IMG/VR virus record: IMGVR_UViG_2681813429_000008
Span: 1-50,324 of that record
DNA from: a virus
Lineage: Duplodnaviria > Heunggongvirae > Uroviricota > Caudoviricetes
Length of the DNA: 50,324 nucleotides
Strand: one strand, 5' to 3'
Shown piece after piece: positions 1 to 46,881 of the stretch (positions are counted from its first letter, which is position 1; each line of letters opens with the position of its first letter). The translations under genes were made by a program, and so were the position numbers. The notes below the pieces were generated by a model. The model had not been told where the DNA came from. It made no database searches and saw only the letters and a program-made list of their open reading frames with translations.

Positions 1-1158
1 ATGCTCACCGTTAAGCAGATTGAAGCAGCAAAGCCGAAAGAAAAACCATACCGCCTACTCGATGGTAATGGCCTGTACCTTTATGTCCCTGTGTCAGGGA
101 AAAAGGTATGGCAGCTTCGCTACAAGATTGACGGTAAGGAGAAAATCCTGACCGTAGGAAAATATCCGCTAATGACTTTGCAGGAGGCAAGAGATAAAGC
201 ATGGACCGCGAGGAAAGACATCTCGGTTGGCATCGATCCGGTAAAAGCGAAAAAGGCTTCGTCTAACAACAATTCCTTTAGTGCGATTTACAAGGAATGG
301 TACGAGCACAAGAAGCAAGTCTGGTCAGTAGGGTATGCGACTGAACTTGCAAAAATGTTTGATGACGACATTTTACCTATCATCGGCGGCCTTGAAATTC
401 AGGATATTGAGCCGATGCAACTGCTGGAAGTAATCCGCAGATTTGAAGATCGCGGTGCAATGGAGCGAGCCAACAAAGCCCGCAGAAGATGCGGCGAGGT
501 TTTCCGTTACGCTATTGTCACTGGTAGGGCTAAATATAACCCGGCACCTGACCTTGCTGACGCCATGAAGGGATACCGCAAGAAGAACTTCCCATTTTTA
601 CCTGCCGACCAGATCCCGGCATTCAACAAAGCACTTGCAACATTTTCAGGAAGTATCGTATCGCTCATTGCGACCAAAGTTTTACGCTACACAGCCCTAA
701 GAACAAAAGAGCTTCGTTCCATGCTATGGAAGAACGTCGATTTTGAAAACAGGATTATCACCATCGACGCCAGTGTGATGAAGGGACGCAAAATTCATGT
801 TGTCCCGATGTCAGACCAGGTGGTTGAACTTCTCACTACACTAAGCTCAATCACTAAACCAGTATCAGAGTTTGTTTTTTCCGGGCGCAACGATAAGAAG
901 AAGCCAATCTGCGAGAACGCGGTGCTACTTGTGATCAAACAAATCGGCTATGAAGGTCTGGAAAGCGGTCACGGATTCAGGCATGAATTCAGCACGATTA
1001 TGAACGAGCACGAATGGCCTGCCGACGCCATTGAAGTGCAACTGGCACATGTCAACGGCGGATCTGTACGTGGAATTTACAACCATGCTCAGTATCTCGA
1101 TAAGCGCAGAGAAATGATGCAATGGTGGGCGGACTGGCTTGATGAAAAGGTGGAGTGA
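1..1158 (+). CDS. int: Tyrosine integrase, P4 family (IntC-like)
   Basis: 385 aa ORF. N-terminal KPKEKPYRLLDGNGLYL arm-binding motif and C-terminal catalytic region (HGFRH ... Y) typical of P4-type integrases. Begins at window base 1, so the true start could lie just upstream. Confidence 0.9.
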   Translation: MLTVKQIEAAKPKEKPYRLLDGNGLYLYVPVSGKKVWQLRYKIDGKEKILTVGKYPLMTLQEARDKAWTARKDISVGIDPVKAKKASSNNNSFSAIYKEWYEHKKQVWSVGYATELAKMFDDDILPIIGGLEIQDIEPMQLLEVIRRFEDRGAMERANKARRRCGEVFRYAIVTGRAKYNPAPDLADAMKGYRKKNFPFLPADQIPAFNKALATFSGSIVSLIATKVLRYTALRTKELRSMLWKNVDFENRIITIDASVMKGRKIHVVPMSDQVVELLTTLSSITKPVSEFVFSGRNDKKKPICENAVLLVIKQIGYEGLESGHGFRHEFSTIMNEHEWPADAIEVQLAHVNGGSVRGIYNHAQYLDKRREMMQWWADWLDEKVE

Positions 1159-14738: not shown

Positions 14739-16937
14739 TTACTGCTGTGGTTGTTGCTGAGTTGATTTTTGCAGGATGCTGCTGATGTCCATGCGCAGCG
14801 CATGGCCCTGTGCCTGACTTTTCAGGACAAGCTCTGCATCAGCACGGGCATTGTCTCCTTGCTGTTGCTGGAACTGTCCGAGCAGTTTCAGCGCCTCACG
14901 GATATCAGATTTCTGCTGACTATCGGCAGATGCGAGTATTTTCACAACATTTGCCGCTGCAACCTGAGCATCAGTCTGTGCCTGGAATGCTTTAACCTGA
15001 ATGGCTGCCTGTTCGTTCTGCGCTTTCTGCAATTCAGCCTGACCAGCAAGAAGCTGACCTTGCGCTGCAACCATAGCCGGATCTGGCTGACTGGCCTGTT
15101 GTTGTTTCGCCTGTTCAACCATCTGCTGTTCTTCTGGCGTTCTCGGCTTGATAACTCCAGACAGAAGCAACTGATTGCGGTTGTATTCTTTAAGGTCGTC
15201 CATCCCTTCGCCGTCCATATTGTCGAGGATCATCGACGATACAAGGTCGTGTTTCGGCGTTCCGGGCGGGATAAGTGCCAGCATGGAAAGTAACGACTTA
15301 ACCGTTGCATCACGGCGAGTAGCGAACGACTGACCAACATCGACAGTCACTTCATAGTTACCCTGCGAAAGGTCGTTAAGCGCGATAACCTGCCCTGTCT
15401 GACGGTCAACCACTTCACCAGTCATTAGCGCCACGTCATCGCTGCCGTCCTCATTAACGATACGCATCGGCGTATCACTGCCATAGACTTCACGAGCCAT
15501 AGAAAGCCACACGACGCCAGCACGGCGCATGGATTTAGCCATGTTGTCCATGTAGATATAGGACTGCGTGTCCATCCGGTTAAAGATGCTATCAACGGTA
15601 TCGGTAGCGACGTTGCTCGGCATGTTCTCAAGCTGCGACGCACCTGTAATTTGCTGAATAGCCGTTCCGGTGTACTGCAATAGCCCGGCAAGAGCAGGAG
15701 GCATTTGTGTCGGAGGTGTCCAGCCAGCAACCTGAGCCTCTGAAATGACCGTTCCGTTTTTGTCCTTCTTGCTGGTCATGGGAAGAACTGCAGGTCTTTT
15801 CTTATTCCTCTCTGCCCAGTGATTCATTAATGGGCCGGGAATGAAATCAACATCCACGATAGGAATGCCATCACCGCCAGCCTGAGTAGCGTTATCTGCA
15901 ATCATGGAAACCATCAGGTTCTCAAGACGCTGTGCATCCATCGCTTTTGCTGCGTGGCCTTCGATTCGCTCCTGATTATCAACAAATGAGCGACGCCCAT
16001 ATACCGGGATGAGAGGAATATGTTCACCCGGAATACGCTTCGGTTCTTCCAGCCATTCAGCGCCAGACAGAAGACCGCAATAAACTCTGCGTTTCTTCAC
16101 TGTCCGCTCGCCAATCAGTTCGAATGCACCATCGGTCAGCTCGTCGACAATATCTTTGATTTGCTCTTCATCATAGATTGCCGTTTCTCCGCTGACAGGA
16201 TTGCGCCACGCCGTGAGCTTCACCTTCTCTATGCGAACTTCGTAGTAGCGTCCAACATAGATGGCATCAGGCGTTGACCAGTCATATTGAGTGCCAGTGT
16301 CATCACGAGGAAGGCTTGCCGCGATGGAATCAGGGTATTCAGCCTCGAACGCTTTAGGCGTCATGGAGAACATTTCCATAGCCCACATAGCATCAGAGCG
16401 GTCATATTGCTTGCTGTCCTGATCGAAGAAGACGCATGTCGCTGGGTCGTAAACAGGAAGAAGGCTGATGCGTCGCTGCTCGTTACTCGGATCCATTTCA
16501 TCTTCGTAATCGGCACACATGCGGAAACAACCGAATCCGCCCGTTACAGCATCATCAAATGCGTTATCACACGCTTCGCCACCGGATGTTTCCTGATAGT
16601 CAGCGCGGAATTTGCCGTTCATCTTTTCGGCTAACGCTTCCGATGCCTTATCGTCCTTCGGCCTGAATTTAACGCTGATGCGATTCTGTCGATACTCGCC
16701 AATGATGCGATCACATTCACGGGCAATCTTATTCAGTTCAAAGCGCGGATAATGCTCAAACCTGCCCTCATCAAACGAGTAACCAGCGTTTGTGCTACCT
16801 TCCCACTGTGCGCCGGACACCCTGACGAAACGTTGAGCCTCAATAATCTGCTCACGCATATCCTGCGTTGCTGACCAGGCATTATCAAAGTTGCACAGCA
16901 CCTTGCGATGCCAGTCAGCCATCTTTTTTTCTGCCAT
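14739..16937 (-). CDS. Portal protein (P22 gp1-like)
   Basis: 732 aa. Extensive similarity to the P22 portal as recalled, including the Gln-rich C-terminal barrel (EEQQ..EQAKQ...DPAMV.AQG.LL.GQAEL.KAQN). Confidence 0.9.
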   Translation of the reverse strand: MAEKKMADWHRKVLCNFDNAWSATQDMREQIIEAQRFVRVSGAQWEGSTNAGYSFDEGRFEHYPRFELNKIARECDRIIGEYRQNRISVKFRPKDDKASEALAEKMNGKFRADYQETSGGEACDNAFDDAVTGGFGCFRMCADYEDEMDPSNEQRRISLLPVYDPATCVFFDQDSKQYDRSDAMWAMEMFSMTPKAFEAEYPDSIAASLPRDDTGTQYDWSTPDAIYVGRYYEVRIEKVKLTAWRNPVSGETAIYDEEQIKDIVDELTDGAFELIGERTVKKRRVYCGLLSGAEWLEEPKRIPGEHIPLIPVYGRRSFVDNQERIEGHAAKAMDAQRLENLMVSMIADNATQAGGDGIPIVDVDFIPGPLMNHWAERNKKRPAVLPMTSKKDKNGTVISEAQVAGWTPPTQMPPALAGLLQYTGTAIQQITGASQLENMPSNVATDTVDSIFNRMDTQSYIYMDNMAKSMRRAGVVWLSMAREVYGSDTPMRIVNEDGSDDVALMTGEVVDRQTGQVIALNDLSQGNYEVTVDVGQSFATRRDATVKSLLSMLALIPPGTPKHDLVSSMILDNMDGEGMDDLKEYNRNQLLLSGVIKPRTPEEQQMVEQAKQQQASQPDPAMVAAQGQLLAGQAELQKAQNEQAAIQVKAFQAQTDAQVAAANVVKILASADSQQKSDIREALKLLGQFQQQQGDNARADAELVLKSQAQGHALRMDISSILQKSTQQQPQQ

Positions 16938-16938
16938 A

Positions 16939-18354
16939 TCAACCTACACCACAAGGAATTGAGTAACTGGAATAGTCGGGTTGCGCAGCCGACTCCGGGC
17001 AATGCATACACATCATCAGCGCATCAGCCAGGTTAGGAGATGGAATACCGAGCTTCTGCTTCATTTCGACCTTAGTCATTAGCTCCAGCTTCCCGTTGTT
17101 ATTGAATTTGCGCTGAATCTGCGTCAGTTCTGCAAACAGCTTCTCCAGCATCTTCTCGCCTATCGCTTCTTTGTCGAAACTCAGCATGTCGTCGGGGTCT
17201 GCATACTCACCATGAACAACCGCCCGATATGTCAGATACAGCCTGTCAGCCAGCGCGTAATAGAATTGCGCTCGCTTATTGCGGAATACATCGCCAATAG
17301 TGCGAACGTTGTCGCCCTGTACGACTTCATCGGCCCATGCTCCGGCCTGATACGGTGCATCTTCATCGAATGGCGATTCGCTGCCCTTGAACATCGTGGC
17401 GGTGATTTTCTTGCCGGAGAACGCTTCCGTTGTCTGTCTGCGTAGCCCGGCACCAACACCATCACCATCCCACAGGTAGTGGTCAGCGCCGTCTTCAATC
17501 GCCAGCGAAGTAGCCCAGTCAGCACCATCGTTGATGTCCATCAGCAGACCTTCGGCAATGCGCTTAACTACCGAACCGTGGCGCGATGCGTAACCTTTAG
17601 CATCTGGCCCTGTATCTGACGGGTCATGTGCAGAAACAACAGCGCCTTTCGCTTTCCATCCGAGTTTCTTGTGCGCATCGGTTGCAGCTTCAAGCCATTC
17701 ACGTTTGATGATTGCCATATCACTTGCGCTTACCGGCTCACCCAGCCAGATGTGACGATACAGTGTCGGATTTCTGCGTTTGCACTCTTCCATCTCCAGA
17801 CGGAGAACTTCAGGAAAGTGCGGGTTGTCGGTGTAGTTCACCGTCAGCAGACAAATATCATCAGGAGGATTTACGACGAATCGCTGATAGGTATCGTCGA
17901 GGATGTTCTTCGGGTTAAAGCTCACCCATATTTCAGAGAACGGCTTACGGATGGTTGGAATCAGGATATCCCATGATTCCTTCGTTACCGCTTCCGCTTC
18001 TTCCACCCAGCAGATATCAATGCCTTCGAGCGATTTAATCTTCGTCGGGTTGTTTTTGATGCCGTAGAACATGAATTCAGCATTCGTTCCGAGATGACGA
18101 ATCATTGAACGCTGAATTTCAAACTCAGCCGAATACCCTTCACGCTCGATGGTATCTTCAAGCAACCGGATTACAGAATCGCTGATACTGTTTTGCAGTT
18201 CACGAGCGCAAAGAATACGCACAGGCTGCCGACGTGCCGCCTCAACAAGCAGCCTCGCAATTGCCCATGATTTACCGCTACCTCGACCGCCTTTGGCGAC
18301 TTTGTAGCGATGCGCCTCAATGAACGGTTCAAAGATAGGATTAATCGAGGTCAT
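16939..18354 (-). CDS. Terminase large subunit
   Basis: 471 aa. Walker A motif (KGGRGSGKS) near the N-terminus and nuclease-type C-terminal half. Immediately upstream of portal. Confidence 0.9.
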   Translation of the reverse strand: MTSINPIFEPFIEAHRYKVAKGGRGSGKSWAIARLLVEAARRQPVRILCARELQNSISDSVIRLLEDTIEREGYSAEFEIQRSMIRHLGTNAEFMFYGIKNNPTKIKSLEGIDICWVEEAEAVTKESWDILIPTIRKPFSEIWVSFNPKNILDDTYQRFVVNPPDDICLLTVNYTDNPHFPEVLRLEMEECKRRNPTLYRHIWLGEPVSASDMAIIKREWLEAATDAHKKLGWKAKGAVVSAHDPSDTGPDAKGYASRHGSVVKRIAEGLLMDINDGADWATSLAIEDGADHYLWDGDGVGAGLRRQTTEAFSGKKITATMFKGSESPFDEDAPYQAGAWADEVVQGDNVRTIGDVFRNKRAQFYYALADRLYLTYRAVVHGEYADPDDMLSFDKEAIGEKMLEKLFAELTQIQRKFNNNGKLELMTKVEMKQKLGIPSPNLADALMMCMHCPESAAQPDYSSYSIPCGVG

Positions 18355-21749: not shown

Positions 21750-21825
21750 TGGTGCTGGTTAACGGACTTGAACCGCTACCCATTCGCTTACAAGGCGACT
21801 GCTCTACCATTGGAGCTAAACCAGC
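21750..21825 (-). tRNA. tRNA with anticodon UGU (Thr-like)
   Basis: Hand-folded 76 nt cloverleaf: 7/7 bp acceptor stem (GCTGGTT/AACCAGC), D-arm GCTC/GAGC, anticodon loop CTTGTAA, T-arm with TTCAAGT loop, encoded 3' ACCA. Confidence 0.6.
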
Positions 21826-21830
21826 ATATT

Positions 21831-21905
21831 TGGCGGGACAGCGTGGACTCGAACCACGATAAGAAGGTTAACAGCCTTCCGTAATGACCTTTATACGACT
21901 GACCC
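21831..21905 (-). tRNA. tRNA-like sequence, anticodon GUU (Asn-like), degenerate
   Basis: 75 nt. Good anticodon arm (GAAGG-CTGTTAA-CCTTC) and T-arm (CGTGG-TTCGAGT-CCACG) and 3' GCCA, but acceptor stem has a T-T mismatch and D-stem only 3 bp. Confidence 0.4.
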
Positions 21906-32621: not shown

Positions 32622-33590
32622 ATGAGTGAAGTAACAGATTTAGTTGTTATTGAAAAAGCAAATGCAATGACTGTATTTCAGTCTGCCGACCAGATTGAAG
32701 AAATCCTTCAAAAGGTTGAACGTGAAGTTATGTCCTTTGTGCCTGATATCACAACGGCAAAGGGCAGAAAGGAGATCGCTTCTCTGGCGTATAAAGTTGC
32801 GCAGACGAAAACATATCTCGATGGTCTTGGCAAAGACCTTGTTGCTGAACTGAAGGAAATTCCAAAGCTAATTGATGCCAACCGCAAGACAGTGCGTGAT
32901 CGCCTTGATGAACTGAAAGCCAAGGCGCGCCAGCCTCTTACTGATTATGAGGAAGAACAGGCGCGGATTAAAGCCGAAGAAGAAGCTAAGGCAGCAGCTG
33001 AAGCTCTCGCAAAGCAAATTGAGTCTGACCATGAAATAGCGATTTTGATGGATCGCGAATTTGACCGCCAAAGAGAAGAGGCAAGACTCAAAGCGGAGCA
33101 GGAAAAGCGAGAGCATGAAGAACGCTTAAAAAGAGAAGCTGAAGAAAAAGCCAGAGCAGAAGCCGAAGCAAAGGCAAAAGCCGAAATTGAAGCAGCAGCA
33201 AGGCGAGAAGCAGAAGCTAAGGCCGCAGCGGAACGTGCAGAGCGTGAACGCATTGAAGCCGAGCAACGAGCACAGCGCGAAGCAAAAGAGGCAGCAGAAC
33301 AAGCTGAAAGAGAAAAGCAGGCGGCAATTGAAGCAGAACGCCGAAAAGCACAGGAGGAGGCTGAACGAATCCGGCGCGAGGCTGAAGCAAAAGAGCAAGC
33401 CAGAATAGCAGAAGAAAAAAGAATCAAGGACGAAGAAGAGCGTAGGGCAAAGGATAAAGCTCACCGGAAAGAAGTAAATAACAAAATACTTGCTGACATT
33501 ATCAAGGTTGGCGCATCAGAAGATGTTGCTAAAAATATCATAACAGCCATCGTAAAAGGCGAAGTATTCGCAACAAAAATAACCTACTAA
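32622..33590 (+). CDS. Coiled-coil protein with long E/A/K/R-rich repeat region
   Basis: Start at ATG after GGAGGA. About 120 aa N-terminal domain, ~150 aa low-complexity charged helix (EAEAKAKAEIEAAARREAEAKAAAE...), ~40 aa C-terminal domain. Confidence 0.6.
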   Translation: MSEVTDLVVIEKANAMTVFQSADQIEEILQKVEREVMSFVPDITTAKGRKEIASLAYKVAQTKTYLDGLGKDLVAELKEIPKLIDANRKTVRDRLDELKAKARQPLTDYEEEQARIKAEEEAKAAAEALAKQIESDHEIAILMDREFDRQREEARLKAEQEKREHEERLKREAEEKARAEAEAKAKAEIEAAARREAEAKAAAERAERERIEAEQRAQREAKEAAEQAEREKQAAIEAERRKAQEEAERIRREAEAKEQARIAEEKRIKDEEERRAKDKAHRKEVNNKILADIIKVGASEDVAKNIITAIVKGEVFATKITY

Positions 33591-33614
33591 TAAAACCAAC
33601 ATAAGGAACCACCC

Positions 33615-33746
33615 ATGATTTACGCAATCGCGGGAGGCGCTCGCATGGGTGCCTTCCAACTAAATGAATCTTTACTTGAACGAATCACCCGTAAATTACG
33701 TGACGGATGGAAAAGAGTTGAGGTCTTATTATGCGCAATGAAATAG
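33615..33746 (+). CDS. cIII: CIII (FtsH inhibitor)
   Basis: 43 aa ORF found manually: MIYAIAGGARMGAFQLNESLLERITRKLRDGWKRVEVLLCAMK. Central ESLLERITRKLRDGWKR matches lambda CIII as recalled. Confidence 0.8.
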   Translation: MIYAIAGGARMGAFQLNESLLERITRKLRDGWKRVEVLLCAMK

Positions 33747-33883
33747 CCATCAATCACCAGATGCTTCGTGCTGCACAGAACAAAGCAGTAATAGCCAGAT
33801 TTATTGGTGATTCAAAAATGTGGCTTGAAGCAAATAAAGCGATGAAATCAGCTATCAACCTTCCGTGGTATCGCAGGAAATGA
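33731..33883 (+). CDS. kil: Kil (FtsZ inhibitor)
   Basis: 50 aa ORF overlapping the cIII 3' end; ...AVIARFIGDSKMWLEANKAMK... resembles lambda Kil. Confidence 0.65.
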   Translation: MRNEIAINHQMLRAAQNKAVIARFIGDSKMWLEANKAMKSAINLPWYRRK

Positions 33884-34050
33884 GTTTTATAGATAACTGG
33901 TCAGACGAGGAATTCATTCGTCAGATGAAAGCATTAATCGGTAACGAAGGAGATATTCATGTCACTTGCAACCACAGTGAAGGAGAGCAAGTTACAGAGA
34001 CGCATGTACACGCAGCAGGCGTTAATGTATCGCCAGAAGGGAGATCGTGA
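33880..34050 (+). CDS. Hypothetical small early protein
   Basis: 56 aa, ATG overlapping the kil stop (ATGA). Confidence 0.4.
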   Translation: MSFIDNWSDEEFIRQMKALIGNEGDIHVTCNHSEGEQVTETHVHAAGVNVSPEGRS

Positions 34051-34137
34051 AGGTGTTCGCGTATTTTTAAATGCGGCAAAGACTGAAGTATTAAATCAGC
34101 GTTATTTCCTTGGGCCATGTCCATTCTGAGGTGAATT

Positions 34138-34845
34138 ATGGATTTGAATAAATTCGATGAGCCATTCAGCCCTGAAGATATCGAATGGCGAATACAGCAA
34201 AGCGGTAAAACACGCGATGGAAAGGTGTGGGCTATGGTGCTGGCTTATGTCACGAACAGGGCAATCATGAAACGCCTGGACGATGTTTGCGGCAAAGCAG
34301 GATGGCGCAATGAATACCGCGATATTCCCAACAACGGCGGCGTTGAATGCGGCATATCAATCAGGATTGATTCCGAATGGGTAACCAAATGGGATGCTGC
34401 TGAAAACACGCAGGTAGAAGCCGTAAAAGGTGGTCGTTCCGGTGCAATGAAGCGCGCTGCCGTTCAATGGGGAATCGGTCGGTATCTGTATAACCTTGAG
34501 GAAGGTTTCGCACAAACATCTCTCGATAAAAAGCAGGGATGGCACAGGGCAAAACTGAAGGATGGAACAGGATTTTACTGGCTCCCTCCATCGCTGCCGG
34601 GATGGGCAATCCCAGCATCAGATAACAAACCATCACCAGAAAATACCAACCAGAAATATCCATCGGTTGACTGCGAACAAATCCTGAAAGACTTCAGCGA
34701 TTATGCGTCAACAGAAACTGACAAGAAAAAACTCATCGAGCGTTATCAGCGTGACTGGCAATTAATGGCTGGCAACGAGGAGGCGCAGGCTAAATGCGTT
34801 CAGGTAATGAACATCAGAGTTAACGAACTAAAACAGGCGGCATAA
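34138..34845 (+). CDS. Single-strand annealing recombinase (Rad52-like N-domain, Erf-like C-terminus)
   Basis: 235 aa. Conserved annealing-protein core (GVECGISIRID..WVTKWDAAE...AVKGGRSGAMKRAAVQWGIGRYLY). C-terminal tail resembles the P22 Erf C-terminus as recalled. Confidence 0.7.
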   Translation: MDLNKFDEPFSPEDIEWRIQQSGKTRDGKVWAMVLAYVTNRAIMKRLDDVCGKAGWRNEYRDIPNNGGVECGISIRIDSEWVTKWDAAENTQVEAVKGGRSGAMKRAAVQWGIGRYLYNLEEGFAQTSLDKKQGWHRAKLKDGTGFYWLPPSLPGWAIPASDNKPSPENTNQKYPSVDCEQILKDFSDYASTETDKKKLIERYQRDWQLMAGNEEAQAKCVQVMNIRVNELKQAA

Positions 34846-35313
34846 ATGTCTCACTTGGACGGAATTATTAAAAGATTCGAGTCCAGCTACAAAGTTAATG
34901 AAACAACAGGTTGCTGGGAGTCTACCTATTCAAAAAACAAAGGAGGATACACAAAATTTGTAGCCTTTGGCGTAACAATGCTTTCTCATCGGGTTGCTTT
35001 TGAGCTTTATCACTCCCCCATTCCATCTGGGAAGATGGTTTGCCACAAATGCGATAACCCATGCTGCGTTAATCCTGAACATCTCTTTTTAGGTAGCGCG
35101 CAAGAAAACATGGACGACAAGATAGCAAAAGGAAGGCATCGTGGAGCCAAGAAAGGTCATGCTCATCATGGTGCAAAATTAACAGAGTGGCAGGTTATAG
35201 AAATTAGGAAAAGACTCTCTGAAAAAGAGAGTCAGTACAAGATAGCAAAAGACATGGGTGTATCTCAATCAATTATAAGCAACATAAAAACTGGAAAGAG
35301 GTGGAGCAAATGA
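34846..35313 (+). CDS. HNH homing endonuclease
   Basis: 155 aa. HNH core (HRVAFELYH...[26 protein letters not shown]) and C-terminal HTH-like DNA-binding region. Inserted between the recombinase and ssb. Confidence 0.8.
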
Positions 35314-35783
35314 GTTCTCGCGGGATAAATAAGGTGATCATTATTGGTCGCCTTGGGCATGATCCAGAAATCAGATATTCACCATCAGGAACGGCATTTG
35401 CAAACCTTACAGTTGCTACGTCAGAACAATGGCGTGATAAGCAAACTGGAGAGCAAAAGGAGCAGACGGAGTGGCACCGCGTGGTAATGAGCGGGAAACT
35501 GGCAGAAATTGCCAGCGAATATCTGCGAAAAGGCTCTGAGGTTTATCTTGAAGGCAAATTGCGGACAAGAAAATGGCAGGATCAAAGCGGACAGGATCGG
35601 TTCACTACCGAAGTTATCGTAGGCGTTGGTGGAACCATGCAAATGCTTGGTGGCAAGCAAGGAGGCAATGAACAGTCTTCACCTCAGCGAAATAACGGTC
35701 AGCAACAAAGACAGCAATCTCAGCAGCAGGGAAATCACAGCGAACCACCTATGAACTTCGACGATTCGGATATTCCGTTCTAA
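35310..35783 (+). CDS. ssb: Single-stranded DNA-binding protein
   Basis: Start at [23 protein letters not shown]. Gly/Gln-rich linker and acidic C-terminal tail (DDSDIPF) as in E. coli SSB. Confidence 0.95.
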
Positions 35784-35792
35784 GAGCTGAAT

Positions 35793-36272
35793 ATGAAAAT
35801 CTGCTCAAGATGCCATCAACAGAAGGAAGAAAGGGACTTTCAAATCAGAAGAGCATCCAGAGATGGATTAACTGCCGCTTGCCGGGCTTTCCTGGCTGAA
35901 TACGACAAAGAGCGCGCGGGATTGCCACATCGAGTATCAGCAAGGAGAGAATATCAATCATCGGAACGCGGCAGAGAACGGTGTAACGCAGCCAAAAAGC
36001 GGTTCATTCAGAGCAACCCATGGAAAAGAAAAGCCCACATCATCGTGGGTAATTTTTTGCGCGACGGTAAGCTAATCCGACCACCACAATGTGAGTGCTG
36101 CGGATCAGAATGTAAACCACAGGCGCACCACTGCGACTACAGCAAACCAACCGATGTGATGTGGCTCTGCAAGTCATGTCATGTCGAGTGGCACAAACAT
36201 AACAAACCTATCTACCCAGACGAGGAGCCAGTAACTCTCCCCTTCCCTCGTCACGCTATTCACGCAATTTAA
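35793..36272 (+). CDS. Zinc-binding HNH-motif protein
   Basis: 159 aa with CxxC...CxxC...HHCDY...CKSCH...WH pattern. Confidence 0.5.
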   Translation: MKICSRCHQQKEERDFQIRRASRDGLTAACRAFLAEYDKERAGLPHRVSARREYQSSERGRERCNAAKKRFIQSNPWKRKAHIIVGNFLRDGKLIRPPQCECCGSECKPQAHHCDYSKPTDVMWLCKSCHVEWHKHNKPIYPDEEPVTLPFPRHAIHAI

Positions 36273-36285
36273 TCAGGAGAAAATC

Positions 36286-36582
36286 ATGCCAGCGCCTCAG
36301 TATGGTGCGGATGACCCGCGCCGCTGTTCCGGCAATTCCGTATCGGAGGTGCTGGATAAATTCAGAAAAAACTACGACCTGATAATGTCGCTACCGCAGG
36401 AAACGAAAGAGGAAAAGGAATTTCGCCACTGCATATGGCTTGCAGAGAAAGAAGAACGAGAGCGAATTTACCAGACATCAATCCGACCATTCCGCAAAGC
36501 CACATATACCCACTTCCCTGAATATATCGACCCACGCCTGCGTAATTACCGCTCACGCTATGGCGCTATCAGTAGTGACTGA
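36286..36582 (+). CDS. Hypothetical early protein (possibly Abc2-like anti-RecBCD)
   Basis: 98 aa ORF in the position occupied by abc genes in P22; the assignment is from uncertain recollection only. Confidence 0.45.
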   Translation: MPAPQYGADDPRRCSGNSVSEVLDKFRKNYDLIMSLPQETKEEKEFRHCIWLAEKEERERIYQTSIRPFRKATYTHFPEYIDPRLRNYRSRYGAISSD

Positions 36583-36592
36583 GGAATTAACA

Positions 36593-36883
36593 ATGAAAAC
36601 AATGAAGCTAAACATCGACCTCGGAAAATACGTTATTACCGGAACCAAACACGACCTGATTCTTAGTGAAAGAGGAATTATCAAAGAAGGTGAGAATGCG
36701 GGGAAAGAAACACTAAGCCGTATCGGTTATTACAGCAAGTTTGAGCATCTGGTTAAAGAATTATGCAACCGTGAAATCCTGTTATCTCAGGCGCAGACGC
36801 TACAGGATATTCAGCAGCATATCGAAACTTTAGGTATGTCACTTAGCATGGCTATTGACCAGTTCATGGAGAGTAAATCATGA
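36593..36883 (+). CDS. Hypothetical early protein
   Basis: 96 aa; ATG at 36593 preceded by GAGGAA. Confidence 0.5.
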   Translation: MKTMKLNIDLGKYVITGTKHDLILSERGIIKEGENAGKETLSRIGYYSKFEHLVKELCNREILLSQAQTLQDIQQHIETLGMSLSMAIDQFMESKS

Positions 36884-39790: not shown

Positions 39791-39950
39791 TGAACACTTC
39801 TCACTAAGTTCAATTAATTCCATAACTCACTGTTTTAACTGATATCATCTCCTTATACTCGTCCAGCAAAGTACCATTATTTCTAATGGAATCTATACAT
39901 CTTTGCGTATAACATTGTGTATAACTGAGTTCGATCTTTTTTCTATACAC

Positions 39951-41126
39951 ATGCTGCTATCTGACATCCAAATAAAAAGAGCAAAACCGAAGGACAAACC
40001 CTATACGCTTAACGATGGTATGGGGCTATCACTCCTGATCGACACAGCGGGCAGTAAAGGCTGGCGTTTTCGCTATCGCTTTGCAGGTAAGCCTAAGATG
40101 ATTTCCTTTGGCGTATATGGCGATGTGTCGTTGGCACAGGCACGTACCAAACGTGATGAAGCGCGTTCGATGTTAGCCAACGGGATAAACCCAAGTGAAG
40201 CCAGAAAAGCAGATAAGATTGCTTTGCAGTTCGCGCATGAGAACAGCTTTGAGTCTGTGGCCAGAGAATGGCACTCATCGAAAAAAGCCACCTGGTCAGA
40301 GGGTTATGCAAAAGAGGTTCTCAATTGTATGGAAAAGGATATTTTTCCTTTTATCGGCCAGCGCCCAATTGAGCAGATTGAACCATTAGAACTGCTAACC
40401 GTCCTGCAAAAAATAGAGAAAAGAGGTGCGCTAGAGCAAACCAGTAAGATCCGCCGCCGCTGTGGTGAAGTGCTTCGTTATGCTGTTGCCACTGGTAGAG
40501 CAAAGTATAATTTTGCACCCGATTTAGCTATCGCACTCAACAAACCTAAAACCCAACACTTCCCGTTCCTGACTGAAAGCGAGTTGCCCGAGTTCGTTAA
40601 TGCTCTGGATAACTATCAGGGCAGTTTAGTTACCAAATACGCCACGCAGCTGTTGATGCTAACAGGCGTGCGAACAATTGAACTACGTGCAGCGGAATGG
40701 GCTGAGTTTGATTTAGATAATGCCTTATGGGAGATCCCCAAAGAACGGATGAAGAAACGCCGCCCCCATCTGGTTCCGTTATCAACTCAGGCGATCAATA
40801 TCCTGAAAAAGCTGCAAGAAATAACAGGGAATTACAGCCTCGTTTTCCCTGGCCGGAATGACGTCAGTAAACCAATGAGCGAAGCCAGCATCAACAAAGT
40901 GATAAAACTACTGGGTTATCACGGTCGGTTAACGGGTCACGGTTTCAGGCATACCATGAGCACCATCTTGCATGAGCATGGGTTTGAAAGTGCCTGGATT
41001 GAAATGCAGCTTGCGCATGTTGATAAGAACTCTATTCGAGGTACTTACAATCATGCGCAATATATTAAAGATCGACAAGTAATGATGGAATGGTACGCTA
41101 GCTTATTAAATACGACCTGCTATTAA
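39951..41126 (+). CDS. int: Tyrosine integrase, P4 family (second copy)
   Basis: Start chosen at ATG MLLSDIQIKRAKPKDKPYTLNDG. Shares the RRCGEV.RYA..TGRAKYN.APDLA and HGFRHT motifs with the first integrase. Confidence 0.9.
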   Translation: MLLSDIQIKRAKPKDKPYTLNDGMGLSLLIDTAGSKGWRFRYRFAGKPKMISFGVYGDVSLAQARTKRDEARSMLANGINPSEARKADKIALQFAHENSFESVAREWHSSKKATWSEGYAKEVLNCMEKDIFPFIGQRPIEQIEPLELLTVLQKIEKRGALEQTSKIRRRCGEVLRYAVATGRAKYNFAPDLAIALNKPKTQHFPFLTESELPEFVNALDNYQGSLVTKYATQLLMLTGVRTIELRAAEWAEFDLDNALWEIPKERMKKRRPHLVPLSTQAINILKKLQEITGNYSLVFPGRNDVSKPMSEASINKVIKLLGYHGRLTGHGFRHTMSTILHEHGFESAWIEMQLAHVDKNSIRGTYNHAQYIKDRQVMMEWYASLLNTTCY

Positions 41127-44193: not shown

Positions 44194-46881
44194 TCACTCA
44201 GGTTCAGCGCTTCCCAGTACCTGTGTATTGAACTGGTACACACGTTTAAGCCCTATTTCTGGCAGGCGAATGCTGTTTTGCGTCCGGCCATCTTCACCGG
44301 GTTTCAGCCAGCCCGCGTCCACACACAACCTGGCCACCTTACGCGAGTCAAATCCCTTACAGATCTCCTTCCAGCCTGACGGGAGAACGTAGAACGTCAC
44401 AACCGGCTCTGTCACGTTGTCTCCTTTATCGACTTTTCTGAATCCCATCATTGAAACAGGCCGGTTCCTGTCGTCATTCCAGTCAGCAAACCGACTGAAC
44501 TGATTACGCGTCATGAAGTCCCGAACCTGTTCAAGTGCCGCTTTATCTTCCTGATTAGCTGTATGGCCCCGGTCAGCCATCCATGCAGCCAGACAGCTTT
44601 GAGCGGCACGAAAGGCCTCTCCCTCCGGCCATCCTGTGATGCCCGCTTTTGTGGCCAGCTCCCCGGCCATCGCAACCAGAGCAAAACGGGTAACAGCCCG
44701 GCCAACCTGATTCCCGGCATTTTCCGGCGTCAGCCTTCGGGTATACTCTTTCAATAAGGCTTTCGCCTGACTGGTCAGTTCCGGCAGATCAGCGGTCAGG
44801 CAATACAGCCAGTCGCGGAATGGTGCACCATGATAATGCGCTACGTGCTGCTCAAGATGCTCAGCCAGGGTTTTCCCGCTACTGAAGCCATGAAGTTCTT
44901 CAAACACGCCATACTTGCCCGAATCGCTTGGGATCTGGATCATTCTGACCTCAACCCCGGCATACGTACGTTCCCCGGCGCTTGCCGCATGCTCTACCAG
45001 TGACAGTTCCCCGGTAGACAGAAACAACAGATTCCAGCGGTTGGTTTCCCTTACCGAACCATCTGTTCTGGCTCTGGCTTTGCCCTGCCCGTTAGCCAGC
45101 ATATAAGCGATATTTCCCGCCTCCCTGCCGTCAACCTCCCGGATTTCATCCAGCATCAGCGTGGCATCATTGCGGCGGCTCGCCGTTCCTTCTAAGGCAT
45201 TCCCCGTCGCCCGCCACGTATGCCAGAAATCTGTTCCACCACATACTGATGCAGCCACTTTCATCGTCGTGGTTTTACCGTCTGTGGATTCCCCTTTGAG
45301 GTGATAACCTCCACCGCCGATACCAACCAGTTTCAGAAGGGGGGCAGCAAATGCCAGACTCACCGCAAAGGCAAGACGGGCATTCTTTATGCAATAACGG
45401 CCTATATTTTCACGCCAGCCCTCTGATGTGCCGCTGACACGAAAATCACGCCCCTGCACACTCGATGTTTGTAAGATGACTGACTGGGCTTCGCGCCCTA
45501 TCACTTCATCCTGGAGAACGTAAACCCCGCCGTGCCAGCCAGTTTTATTCACACAGGTTACTTTTCTGTCCGGTTTACACAGCGAGATATATTCCATCAG
45601 GAATGCTCTGGCCATGCCGTTAATGTTGATGTAAGAAAGCCCGTTAACCAGCAGAACGCGGCGCAGTTCTTCCCCGCTACCGCCCAGCATCTCCATCGGC
45701 ATTGCCCATTTACGGCTGTTTCCGTTGGTATCTTCCCATTCCAGCAAACGCCCGTAATTACTTCCATCAGCATCACTGGTGATTGCCGTCACCCGCAACG
45801 GACTGCAAATTTTGATATTACGTATCTCTGTATCACCATCAGACTTATTAACCAGCTTGTCGTACCACAAATATTCTTTTGTCAGCCGGAACCCTTCTGG
45901 TAAACGGGTCTGCCCTTTGCCATGCAGCGTCATTTCTTCACGAAAGGCATCTCTCGCCCGTTCTTTCCCCACTTCCTGCCGATAATCATCCCAGTCAGCC
46001 TTATGGCGTACCGGAGGGAGCGTTACCCAGCCATCCACCGCTTTGGCGGCTTTCTCTGCCTGAATACGCCCGGTGTTTTCTTTGCCGTCAGCCAGATCAT
46101 TATCTCCGGCCAGAATGATCCGGGTTTCCGGCCAGCGTTTTCGGATCTGCTCCGTCACCTTCAGTAAATTGGTGGCAGCGACAGCCGCCACGATCCATCC
46201 TTCAGTCAGCAGACTGACGGTAAGCGCCGTGGCAAAACCCTCAGTGATAATCACCTGTTCAGGTGTTTCAGCGGGTATATCGGTCAGGGCAATGAATGCG
46301 CCAGACAGCTGGCTACCGGGCAGCAGACTTTTATCCCCGTCAGGATTGATAAGCTGGCCACCAGTAATATTCCCGGAAATATCCGTCAAAGGCAGCAGTA
46401 ATGAACCGGTGGAAAATGTTATTCCGGCCAGATTCAAAGGCTGTGACAGCAAGGGAAGTGAATACCCGTGTAAGCTCTTATTTGTCAGATAGACCGGCTC
46501 ACCATTGCAGGACTGCTGTCTGAGTCTGGTATATCGCTCCGCGCCCGCTTCTTTTCCTGCGGCCTTTTTCCTGGCTGGCAATGCGGGCTTCTCCTGTATT
46601 TCTGGTAATGCAAGCGCCTCAGATACCATCCCGGCGACTTCTTTTATCTTTCTTCCTGTCACCAGACGAACCAGATCAAGACCATCGCCATGACCGCACT
46701 GATTACAAAACCACGTCCCTCGCCCCGCTTTATCGTCCAGTCGAAAACGATCTTTTCCACCACAGGCAGGGCAAGCCCCATGATGTCCTGCGGACGGTAC
46801 TTTAATACCTAATGCTGACAGGATATAAGGCCAGCGCCCAATTGCAGCTCCGGAAATCGTGGATACAGACGGTGTTTTCAC
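44194..46881 (-). CDS. P4 alpha-type primase-helicase
   Basis: 895 aa. N-terminal zinc-binding primase region (CPACGG...CNQCGHGDGLDLV), central Toprim-like region, C-terminal P-loop NTPase (KGESTDGKTT). Confidence 0.85.
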   Translation of the reverse strand: MKTPSVSTISGAAIGRWPYILSALGIKVPSAGHHGACPACGGKDRFRLDDKAGRGTWFCNQCGHGDGLDLVRLVTGRKIKEVAGMVSEALALPEIQEKPALPARKKAAGKEAGAERYTRLRQQSCNGEPVYLTNKSLHGYSLPLLSQPLNLAGITFSTGSLLLPLTDISGNITGGQLINPDGDKSLLPGSQLSGAFIALTDIPAETPEQVIITEGFATALTVSLLTEGWIVAAVAATNLLKVTEQIRKRWPETRIILAGDNDLADGKENTGRIQAEKAAKAVDGWVTLPPVRHKADWDDYRQEVGKERARDAFREEMTLHGKGQTRLPEGFRLTKEYLWYDKLVNKSDGDTEIRNIKICSPLRVTAITSDADGSNYGRLLEWEDTNGNSRKWAMPMEMLGGSGEELRRVLLVNGLSYININGMARAFLMEYISLCKPDRKVTCVNKTGWHGGVYVLQDEVIGREAQSVILQTSSVQGRDFRVSGTSEGWRENIGRYCIKNARLAFAVSLAFAAPLLKLVGIGGGGYHLKGESTDGKTTTMKVAASVCGGTDFWHTWRATGNALEGTASRRNDATLMLDEIREVDGREAGNIAYMLANGQGKARARTDGSVRETNRWNLLFLSTGELSLVEHAASAGERTYAGVEVRMIQIPSDSGKYGVFEELHGFSSGKTLAEHLEQHVAHYHGAPFRDWLYCLTADLPELTSQAKALLKEYTRRLTPENAGNQVGRAVTRFALVAMAGELATKAGITGWPEGEAFRAAQSCLAAWMADRGHTANQEDKAALEQVRDFMTRNQFSRFADWNDDRNRPVSMMGFRKVDKGDNVTEPVVTFYVLPSGWKEICKGFDSRKVARLCVDAGWLKPGEDGRTQNSIRLPEIGLKRVYQFNTQVLGSAEPE

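Follow-up and report, generated by a model that had tools for sequence, protein, structure and literature searches.

Why should a small HNH nuclease gene be wedged between the single-strand annealing protein gene and ssb of a temperate phage: as a working member of the recombination module, or as a mobile passenger that has settled beside an essential gene? The question is raised by a 50,324-nt stretch of tailed-phage DNA (Caudoviricetes; IMG/VR record IMGVR_UViG_2681813429_000008), which is referred to here as the window. The HNH gene belongs to a P22-like prophage and lies in the recombination module of its early-left operon, in the order Rad52-like gene, HNH gene, ssb, second HNH-like gene and abc2 (anti-RecBCD). 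The window also holds a P22-type tailspike, a terminase, O-like and primase-helicase replication genes, a repressor region and an integrase.

The HNH gene and its junctions

A first-pass annotation, made from the letters and their open reading frames, had placed an HNH ORF between a recombinase gene and ssb. This placement is borne out by the ORF call, by the Pfam HNH_3 match, and by the Rad52 and SSB matches of the flanking genes. The features of the locus are as follows:

34138..34845 (+): gene for the Rad52-like single-strand annealing protein, the left flank or homology arm; stop codon TAA at 34843-34845
34846..35313 (+): HNH gene, free-standing, ATG to TGA, 155 aa; 464 nt (34846-35309) are extra relative to empty-site alleles
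34987..35112 (+): HNH_3 His-Me finger core, residues 48-89 (Pfam match)
35176..35292 (+): C-terminal helix-turn-helix (HTH), residues ~111-149 (weak HTH_38 match, PHROG, AlphaFold2 helices, partial fold matches)
35297..35306 (+): Shine-Dalgarno-like AGAGGTGGAG, within the final HNH codons K-R-W-S, 4-6 nt 5' of the ssb ATG
35310..35783 (+): ssb, Sf6 type, 157 aa (Pfam SSB, 1.9e-38)
35313..35325 (+): rewritten ssb nt 4-16, codons 2-6, AGTTCTCGCGGGA in the window
35326..35338 (+): 13-nt tract AAATAAGGTGATC, common to cassette-linked and Sf6-type ssb alleles

The upstream ORF matches Pfam Rad52_Rad22 (E=7.2e-26) and PHROG 1097, 'Erf-like ssDNA annealing protein' (E=2e-129). Start/stop overlaps had been described on both sides of the HNH gene, and only the downstream one stands: the HNH TGA (35311-35313) and the ssb ATG (35310-35312) overlap as ATGA, whereas upstream the recombinase TAA directly abuts the HNH ATG with zero overlap, as read from the sequence. 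The ssb start is placed at 35310, where homology with Sf6 gp27 and E. coli SSB puts it, and not at the GTG called mechanically at 35301. The Shine-Dalgarno-like motif in the last HNH codons is proposed to serve a translational hand-over from HNH to ssb, and an AGGTGG/GGTGG-like motif occupies the equivalent place in most, not all, members of the clade.

A scan of the cassette found neither a promoter nor a + strand terminator inside it, so there is no sign that the HNH gene is expressed independently. Within the coding region, at the boundary between linker and HTH, lies a perfect 8-bp inverted repeat (GACTCTCT-gaaaa-AGAGAGTC, 35213..35233), which is flagged as terminator-like on the minus strand only and may be due to chance. 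An Rfam search of positions 33500-36700 returned no group I or group II intron and no other RNA family; the HNH gene is a separate ORF between two complete genes rather than an intron- or intein-encoded one. Its GC content is 40.6%, against 47-48% in the flanking genes.

Immediately 3' of ssb, at 35793..36272 (+), stands the second HNH-like gene (PHROG 2340, 'endonuclease'), with a CxxC...HH...CxxC motif, so that a nuclease gene stands on either side of ssb. The slot 3' of ssb is variable in relatives, where it holds a gp26-like gene, a DnaQ-like 3'-5' exonuclease (Rv2179c-like) or nothing, and the gp26-like gene of the window may be mobile as well. Another patchy HNH gene is found in E. coli 23CRST032, whose locus (L260) is the closest relative of that in the window: a gene with an 'HNH endonuclease signature motif' lies there on the opposite strand between portal and large terminase (L260:3240-3740). 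At the equivalent place in the window, between ORFs 14739..16937 and 16939..18354, which are taken to be portal and terminase, there is no ORF of at least 110 aa.

Elsewhere in the window, genes for tRNA-Thr(TGT) and tRNA-Asn(GTT) are found at 21750..21905 (-); by position, the pair seems to sit between the late-regulator and lysis regions. The intervals 1..1158, 39903..41126 and 44194..46881 contain two tyrosine integrases and, on the far side, a DUF927/Toprim primase gene. These integrases and the primase suggest further integrative elements beside the P22-like prophage, possibly including a P4-like satellite.

Family, fold and conservation of the HNH protein

The protein matches HNH_3 (Pfam PF13392) with E=1.1e-13 and 51 bits against a cut-off of 24.8, over profile positions 4-45 of 46. 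Weak Pfam matches to zf-His_Me_endon and HTH_38 (E=0.0016, residues 111-146) accompany this assignment, and PHROG HNH endonuclease families are matched down to E=1.8e-33, together with regulator and HTH families. The AlphaFold2 model (pLDDT 90.5) consists of a beta-rich N-terminal part, a beta-beta-alpha finger (strands 64-67 and 80-83, then helix 85-94), a linker and a three-helix C-terminal domain (114-125, 130-137 and 141-149). These three helices, spanning residues 114-149, and partial fold matches to HTH domains support the C-terminal DNA-binding tail that had been attributed to the protein at first pass. A sequence search of the PDB gave nothing significant (best E=0.038, a designed protein), and the top fold matches in the PDB are I-HmuI (1U3E, E=6e-4, full-length alignment) followed by I-PpoI.

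Across 60 homologues, H67, C69, D70, C74, N76, P77, H79, N88 and D91 are invariant, as is W153. The His-Me finger carries a Cys/His cluster (C66, C69, C74 and H79), and H67, N76 and N88 are proposed as catalytic or metal-binding residues. Between two comparable enterobacterial variants (L019 and L023), dN/dS is 0.068; comparisons with L254 and L256, which contain indels and are unaligned, were left out. Relative to the window copy, synonymous sites are saturated while the proteins remain 74% identical. Together with the low dN/dS, this indicates that the protein is kept functional. By sequence, fold and conserved residues it is an HNH_3 / His-Me finger endonuclease, for which DNA cleavage is predicted. 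RefSeq names it only 'HNH endonuclease' (WP_000018646.1), and a full-text literature search found no publication on this gene or on any HNH gene upstream of a lambdoid ssb.

Empty sites and occupancy

In phages Sf6, N7 and IME10 both flanks are present at 97-98% identity, and precisely the insert is missing. When positions 33900-36600 are compared with phage genomes by megablast, these three match in two pieces with 82% query cover, and the gap is the HNH gene. Sf6 and N7 have no spacing between the recombinase stop and the ssb ATG; in Sf6 the junction of genes 28 and 27 reads ...GGCGGCATAAATGGCAAGCAGAGGCGTAAATAAGGTG.... The empty and occupied junctions were set by reading them by hand and by script; the MAFFT alignment misplaced the gap. 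Comparison with relatives that lack the gene, which the first-pass annotation had proposed as the way to define the insertion point, thus yields an insertion of 464 nt (34846-35309).

A megablast search of the HNH gene against 50,697 phage records gave no nucleotide match, and the closest phage protein is that of Vibrio phage 1.079.O, at 62% identity. Among 5426 complete E. coli genomes the gene is present in 41, at no less than 99% identity, always chromosomal and always adjoining ssb. The Rad52-ssb module itself occurs in about 408-417 of the same genomes; with 41 carriers among some 410 module genomes, occupancy is roughly 10%, and the empty site is the majority state. IMG/VR contains 22 occupied and at least 120 empty loci, and the exact HNH protein is indexed in 3161 blocks of public assemblies. 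The gene is therefore patchily present at one exact position among near-identical genomes. Its co-occurrence with the annealing protein, which an obligate partner in the module would show, is not regular: it is absent from ~90% of near-identical Rad52-ssb modules.

Many E. coli genomes have multiple lambdoid prophages that carry the module, with up to four places per genome. The chromosomes of E2348/69, ET650, A25, E89 and S163-2 each have two places that match the HNH gene/junction query, and one possibility is that co-resident prophages converted each other.

A rewritten patch at the ssb 5' end

Besides the insert itself, occupied and empty loci differ in the first codons of ssb. Nucleotides 4-16 read AGTTCTCGCGGGA in loci with the HNH gene and GCAAGCAGAGGCG in loci without it, so that 10 of 13 nt differ while Ser-Arg-Gly is kept:

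With HNH: ssb codons 2-6 AGT TCT CGC GGG ATA; SSB N-terminus MSSRGI
Without HNH: ssb codons 2-6 GCA AGC AGA GGC GTA; SSB N-terminus MASRGV

At Ser and at Arg alike, the rewriting goes all the way from one codon family to the other. The ATGA overlap dictates the A2S change, but it does not dictate the synonymous ones. The 13 nt that follow the patch are identical in both states.

The linkage between patch and gene is strict. In IMG/VR, the rewritten end is accompanied by the HNH gene at 22 of 22 loci and the unrewritten end at none of at least 120, counts that are not phylogenetically independent; the unrewritten ends always abut the recombinase stop. When 35 carrier and 120 empty loci are pooled, the HNH gene and ssb nt 4-16 are the sole consistent differences, and in the two well-sampled backgrounds no other HNH-linked variant is found in the 300 nt upstream or in the rest of ssb. 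A synthetic junction in which the HNH gene is deleted and ssb remains rewritten has 38 matches of at least 95% identity among complete E. coli genomes. The best 30 of these 38 all contain the HNH gene, and none of the 30 matches the deleted junction in a single piece; a further 244 E. coli genomes match at the identity expected for the unrewritten form. Alleles without HNH are not simple deletions, because their 13 nt differ.

The rewritten 13 nt are proposed to be a self-immunity change at the endonuclease target. Alternatively, they could be a remnant of the original donor sequence passed down by descent, or an adaptation of translation initiation. The relative from a Vibrio phage keeps AGT AGT AGA GGG and is only partly 'rewritten'. 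In E. coli ETEC6333, an ssb allele without HNH (L015:1451) reads ATG GCA ATC AGA (Ser3 to Ile), a single-base change inside the presumed target that may confer natural resistance.

One cassette in several ssb backgrounds

The same cassette occurs in front of three ssb alleles: the 157-aa Sf6-type ssb (the window, L040, L044 and L260), a 168-aa ssb (L003-L012 and 19 IMG/VR loci) and a 171-aa ssb (strain N9). HNH-less partners are found for all three, and the cassette boundaries are the same to the nucleotide in every background. Ten carrier loci in differing prophage neighbourhoods all have the 168-aa ssb, which is only ~60-75% identical in DNA to the 157-aa ssb of the window. The Rad52-like gene is ~98% identical between loci with and without HNH. 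Movement is thus independent of the flanking genes, as seen in the identical cassette in three ssb alleles and in a 74%-identical relative of the protein (P0002) that occurs, itself unchanged, behind both ERF and Rad52 genes.

The window itself is recombinant. It equals the HNH-bearing 168-aa-ssb loci up to 35338 and equals Sf6 from 35326 on, and this switch places the right-hand crossover within the 13-nt tract. Its ssb is a chimera, cassette-derived over its first 16 nt and from there on identical to the HNH-less Sf6-type ssb, with 0-2 differences per 50 nt from Sf6 beyond nt 16. The crossover between the two ssb 5' types is confined to 13 identical bases, which is short for ordinary homologous repair. 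Recombination by annealing proteins tolerates short homology.

The first-pass annotation had also suggested that the endonuclease might promote gene conversion of the recombination module. This is not what the alleles display: the converted tract comprises 13 nt of ssb only, and there is no sign of module-wide conversion. The broader claim of a homing-endonuclease insertion fares better. Relatives that all carried the gene, with no empty-site alleles, would have spoken against it; instead, empty sites are in the majority, and one cassette stands in three ssb backgrounds with a rewritten 5' end.

Apparent irregularities at three loci have other explanations. L003 does not carry a different upstream recombinase; an IS66-family element (L003:1909-3846, strain MFDS1001074) interrupts the Rad52-like gene and replaces most of it; ~130 nt at the 3' end of that gene survive, and the HNH gene and ssb are untouched. 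L038 was likewise dropped as a case of a different recombinase, since all that it displays is an unrelated upstream sequence. A different insert at the same site was ruled out for L016, whose two-piece match consists of ssb and then the downstream gp26-like gene.

The 168-aa allele (L004:4465-4971 and relatives), the commonest prophage ssb, ends ...DDDIPF-APVTLPFPRHAIHAI. Its last 14 codons and the DNA downstream are identical to the 3' terminus of the gp26-like gene, with 70 nt in common (window 36228..36297), which indicates a deletion fusion that buries the normally free C-terminal tip of SSB. The fusion accounts for an old note in the Sf6 annotation, according to which 14 residues are shared with 'E. 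coli SSB'.

ssb as the constant partner

Wherever the context of a relative of 51% identity or more could be read, the gene lies directly 5' of ssb and overlaps its start. The gene upstream of these relatives varies, with at least seven different genes represented:

P0003, 74% to the window protein: Citrobacter freundii; upstream Rad52-like
P0002, 74%: Cronobacter sakazakii / Enterobacteriaceae; upstream ERF or Rad52-like
P0005, 65%: upstream YqaJ exonuclease
P0006, 62%: Vibrio phage 1.079.O; upstream ERF
P0008, 60%: Shewanella algae; upstream 143-aa unknown protein
P0009, 60%: upstream RdgC/FtsK-gamma protein
P0011, 58%: upstream 334-aa protein, itself after a YqaJ exonuclease
P0017, 51%: upstream Sipho_Gp157

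For the Citrobacter form (74%), an HNH-less partner (L261) has a 96%-identical ssb with an unrewritten 5' end. Among distant family members (36-54% identity, on viral contigs), an ssb within 2.5 kb is seen in only one of 79, where it is not the adjacent gene. Adjacency to ssb in close relatives but not in distant ones points to a branch that has specialised on the start of ssb, in a family that otherwise occupies many sites. The constant partner is accordingly ssb, and ssb rather than the recombinase or the recombination module is also the probable target. A homing lineage of this kind would follow the start codon of a single essential gene through Escherichia, Citrobacter, Shewanella and a Vibrio phage.

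The ERF- and Rad52-family genes that precede the HNH gene (L018-L022 compared with L019 and with window 34815..34845) have nearly the same last 20-25 nt, ...GAACTTAAACAGGCGGCATAA (ELKQAA-stop), and are otherwise unrelated. This common end may be a C-terminal SSB-interaction tail or a left-hand co-conversion footprint.

A proposed homing cycle and its alternatives

The HNH gene most probably encodes a free-standing homing endonuclease of HNH_3 / I-HmuI-like type, from a lineage specialised on the 5' end of phage ssb; from sequence and predicted structure, the probability of this reading is put at about 0.75. On the evidence of the sequence, the gene is transcribed with the early-left (pL) operon and translated right after the Rad52-like gene (TAA|ATG), and ribosomes would pass from HNH to ssb by way of the ATGA overlap and the internal Shine-Dalgarno-like motif. 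Judging from its fold, the product would be a monomeric His-Me-finger nuclease (H67/N76/N88 and the Cys/His cluster) tethered to a C-terminal helix-turn-helix, and its recognition site would probably be long and asymmetric. Where an HNH-less lambdoid phage or prophage shares the cell, the enzyme would nick or cut the junction of recombinase stop and ssb start, with the presumed centre of cleavage in ssb codons 2-6 (ATG GCA AGC AGA GGC GTA). The break would then be repaired from the HNH-bearing copy, plausibly aided by the phage annealing protein and SSB. The expected product of such repair, 464 nt of gene plus 13 rewritten nt, is the outcome seen in the alleles. The carrier genome would escape cutting through its 10 of 13 changed nt, with the SSB N-terminus nearly constant (MASRGV to MSSRGI). 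In this cycle the anatomy, the empty sites, the identical cassette across backgrounds, the strict linkage of the patch, the conservation of the motif and the fold are observed, and from them we infer enzymatic activity, the exact target, immunity and biased inheritance.

Tight packing and translational coupling in a recombination module speak against homing. They would suit a domesticated nuclease of the module, one that supplies nicks or ends for the Rad52-like protein and SSB, as Exo partners Beta in lambda, and that is kept because it benefits phage recombination or replication. The gene does share a transcript with the Rec module in which it lies, its translation is coupled to that of both neighbours, and it is under strong purifying selection. 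A 2025 survey of lambdoid Rec modules by Casjens and colleagues tentatively counts other HNH genes that are packed tightly into such modules among the probable members, and warns that HNH genes can be mobile (PMC12315714). Yet ~90% of near-identical modules work without the gene, and the upstream partner in relatives is often no annealing protein; a sequence-reading HTH and a precisely rewritten neighbouring sequence fit a site-specific selfish enzyme better, and a role as module nuclease is quite unlikely. It is very improbable that the gene is an inactive remnant, which entered once and lost its activity, and whose patchiness reflects lambdoid early-left mosaicism and occasional deletion. 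Lambdoid early regions are highly mosaic, identity of at least 99% within E. coli is compatible with a recent single origin, and a few copies are truncated (P0007 at 119 aa, and one record with less than 80% coverage). Decay is nevertheless hard to reconcile with motif residues that are all invariant, with a dN/dS of 0.068 between diverged variants and with cassette boundaries that are nucleotide-identical in every background, and deletion with the 13 nt that set HNH-less alleles apart.

The protein might also be a weapon against rival phages or the host, cutting the ssb of HNH-less lambdoid competitors, and perhaps host ssb, during lytic growth, with homing as a side effect (marker exclusion). 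Free-standing Seg and Mob endonucleases of T4 cause exclusion of T2 markers and would be a precedent. Rivals are at hand, in that many E. coli genomes hold several lambdoid prophages with the module. The chromosomal ssb of E. coli K-12 reads GCCAGCAGAGGCG against GCAAGCAGAGGCG, differing at one of 13 positions and matching at 24 of the first 27 nt, but the upstream half of the junction differs in host ssb. The data do not separate this reading from ordinary homing, with which it is compatible, and taken as the main role it has a low probability. An unlikely extension would make the whole ssb-linked HNH clade a combined device for host shutoff, rival exclusion and self-spreading around an essential gene. 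The start of ssb is nearly universal among enterobacteria (ATG GCN AGC AGA GGC GTA AA), and it is this sequence that the enzyme presumably recognises, so that induction could cut the ssb of the host and of HNH-less prophages; if so, the carrier's rewritten ssb would stay intact while host and rival ssb genes are cut.

Comparison with known systems

The HNH gene differs from the other HNH-type gene of its neighbourhood. Genes of the ES18 gp47 / Sf6 gp26 type likewise lie in the SAP-SSB-Abc2 recombination module (PMC12315714), and the window has one at 35793..36272. This gene is unrelated to the HNH gene studied here (BLASTP E=18), is located downstream of ssb, belongs to PHROG 2340 and has no Pfam HNH_3 match. 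When lambdoid Rec modules are surveyed, at least the HNH gene 5' of ssb would be scored as a mobile passenger of ssb and not as a module nuclease.

In architecture, the protein resembles I-HmuI of Bacillus phage SPO1 (PDB 1U3E): both combine an HNH_3-type His-Me finger with a helix-turn-helix at the C-terminal end, and the expected shape is an elongated monomer. The two are only 16% identical, and the window protein, unlike I-HmuI, has an extra invariant Cys/His cluster, which also gives I-PpoI-like matches. The coding sequence of I-HmuI lies within a group I intron that interrupts a DNA polymerase gene; the HNH gene, in contrast, is free-standing and has no intron. Enzymes of the I-HmuI type read and nick just 3' of their insertion point, and it is just 3' of the HNH insertion point that the rewritten bases sit.

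In genomic setting, the free-standing homing endonucleases of T-even phages, such as SegG and MobE, are comparable. They lie between conserved DNA-metabolism genes, are patchy among close relatives, and leave their own genome protected by target differences. SegG adjoins and cuts in T4 gene 32, the SSB gene, and SegG beside gene 32 may be the closest working analogy to the HNH gene beside ssb. SegG is a GIY-YIG enzyme of a virulent phage that cuts some hundreds of bp from its own gene and leaves long co-conversion tracts. The window gene, in contrast, encodes an HNH enzyme, resides in temperate P22-like/lambdoid prophages, abuts the ssb start codon and has 13 nt co-converted. Free-standing phage homing endonucleases are already well known, and this one is an uncharacterised new member of that class. 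It offers a very clean experiment made by nature: one 477-nt cassette recurs with several ssb alleles, empty sites number in the hundreds, and the 13 rewritten nt narrow the predicted recognition site down to within a few bases. An uncharacterised enzyme present in thousands of E. coli assemblies thereby becomes readily testable.
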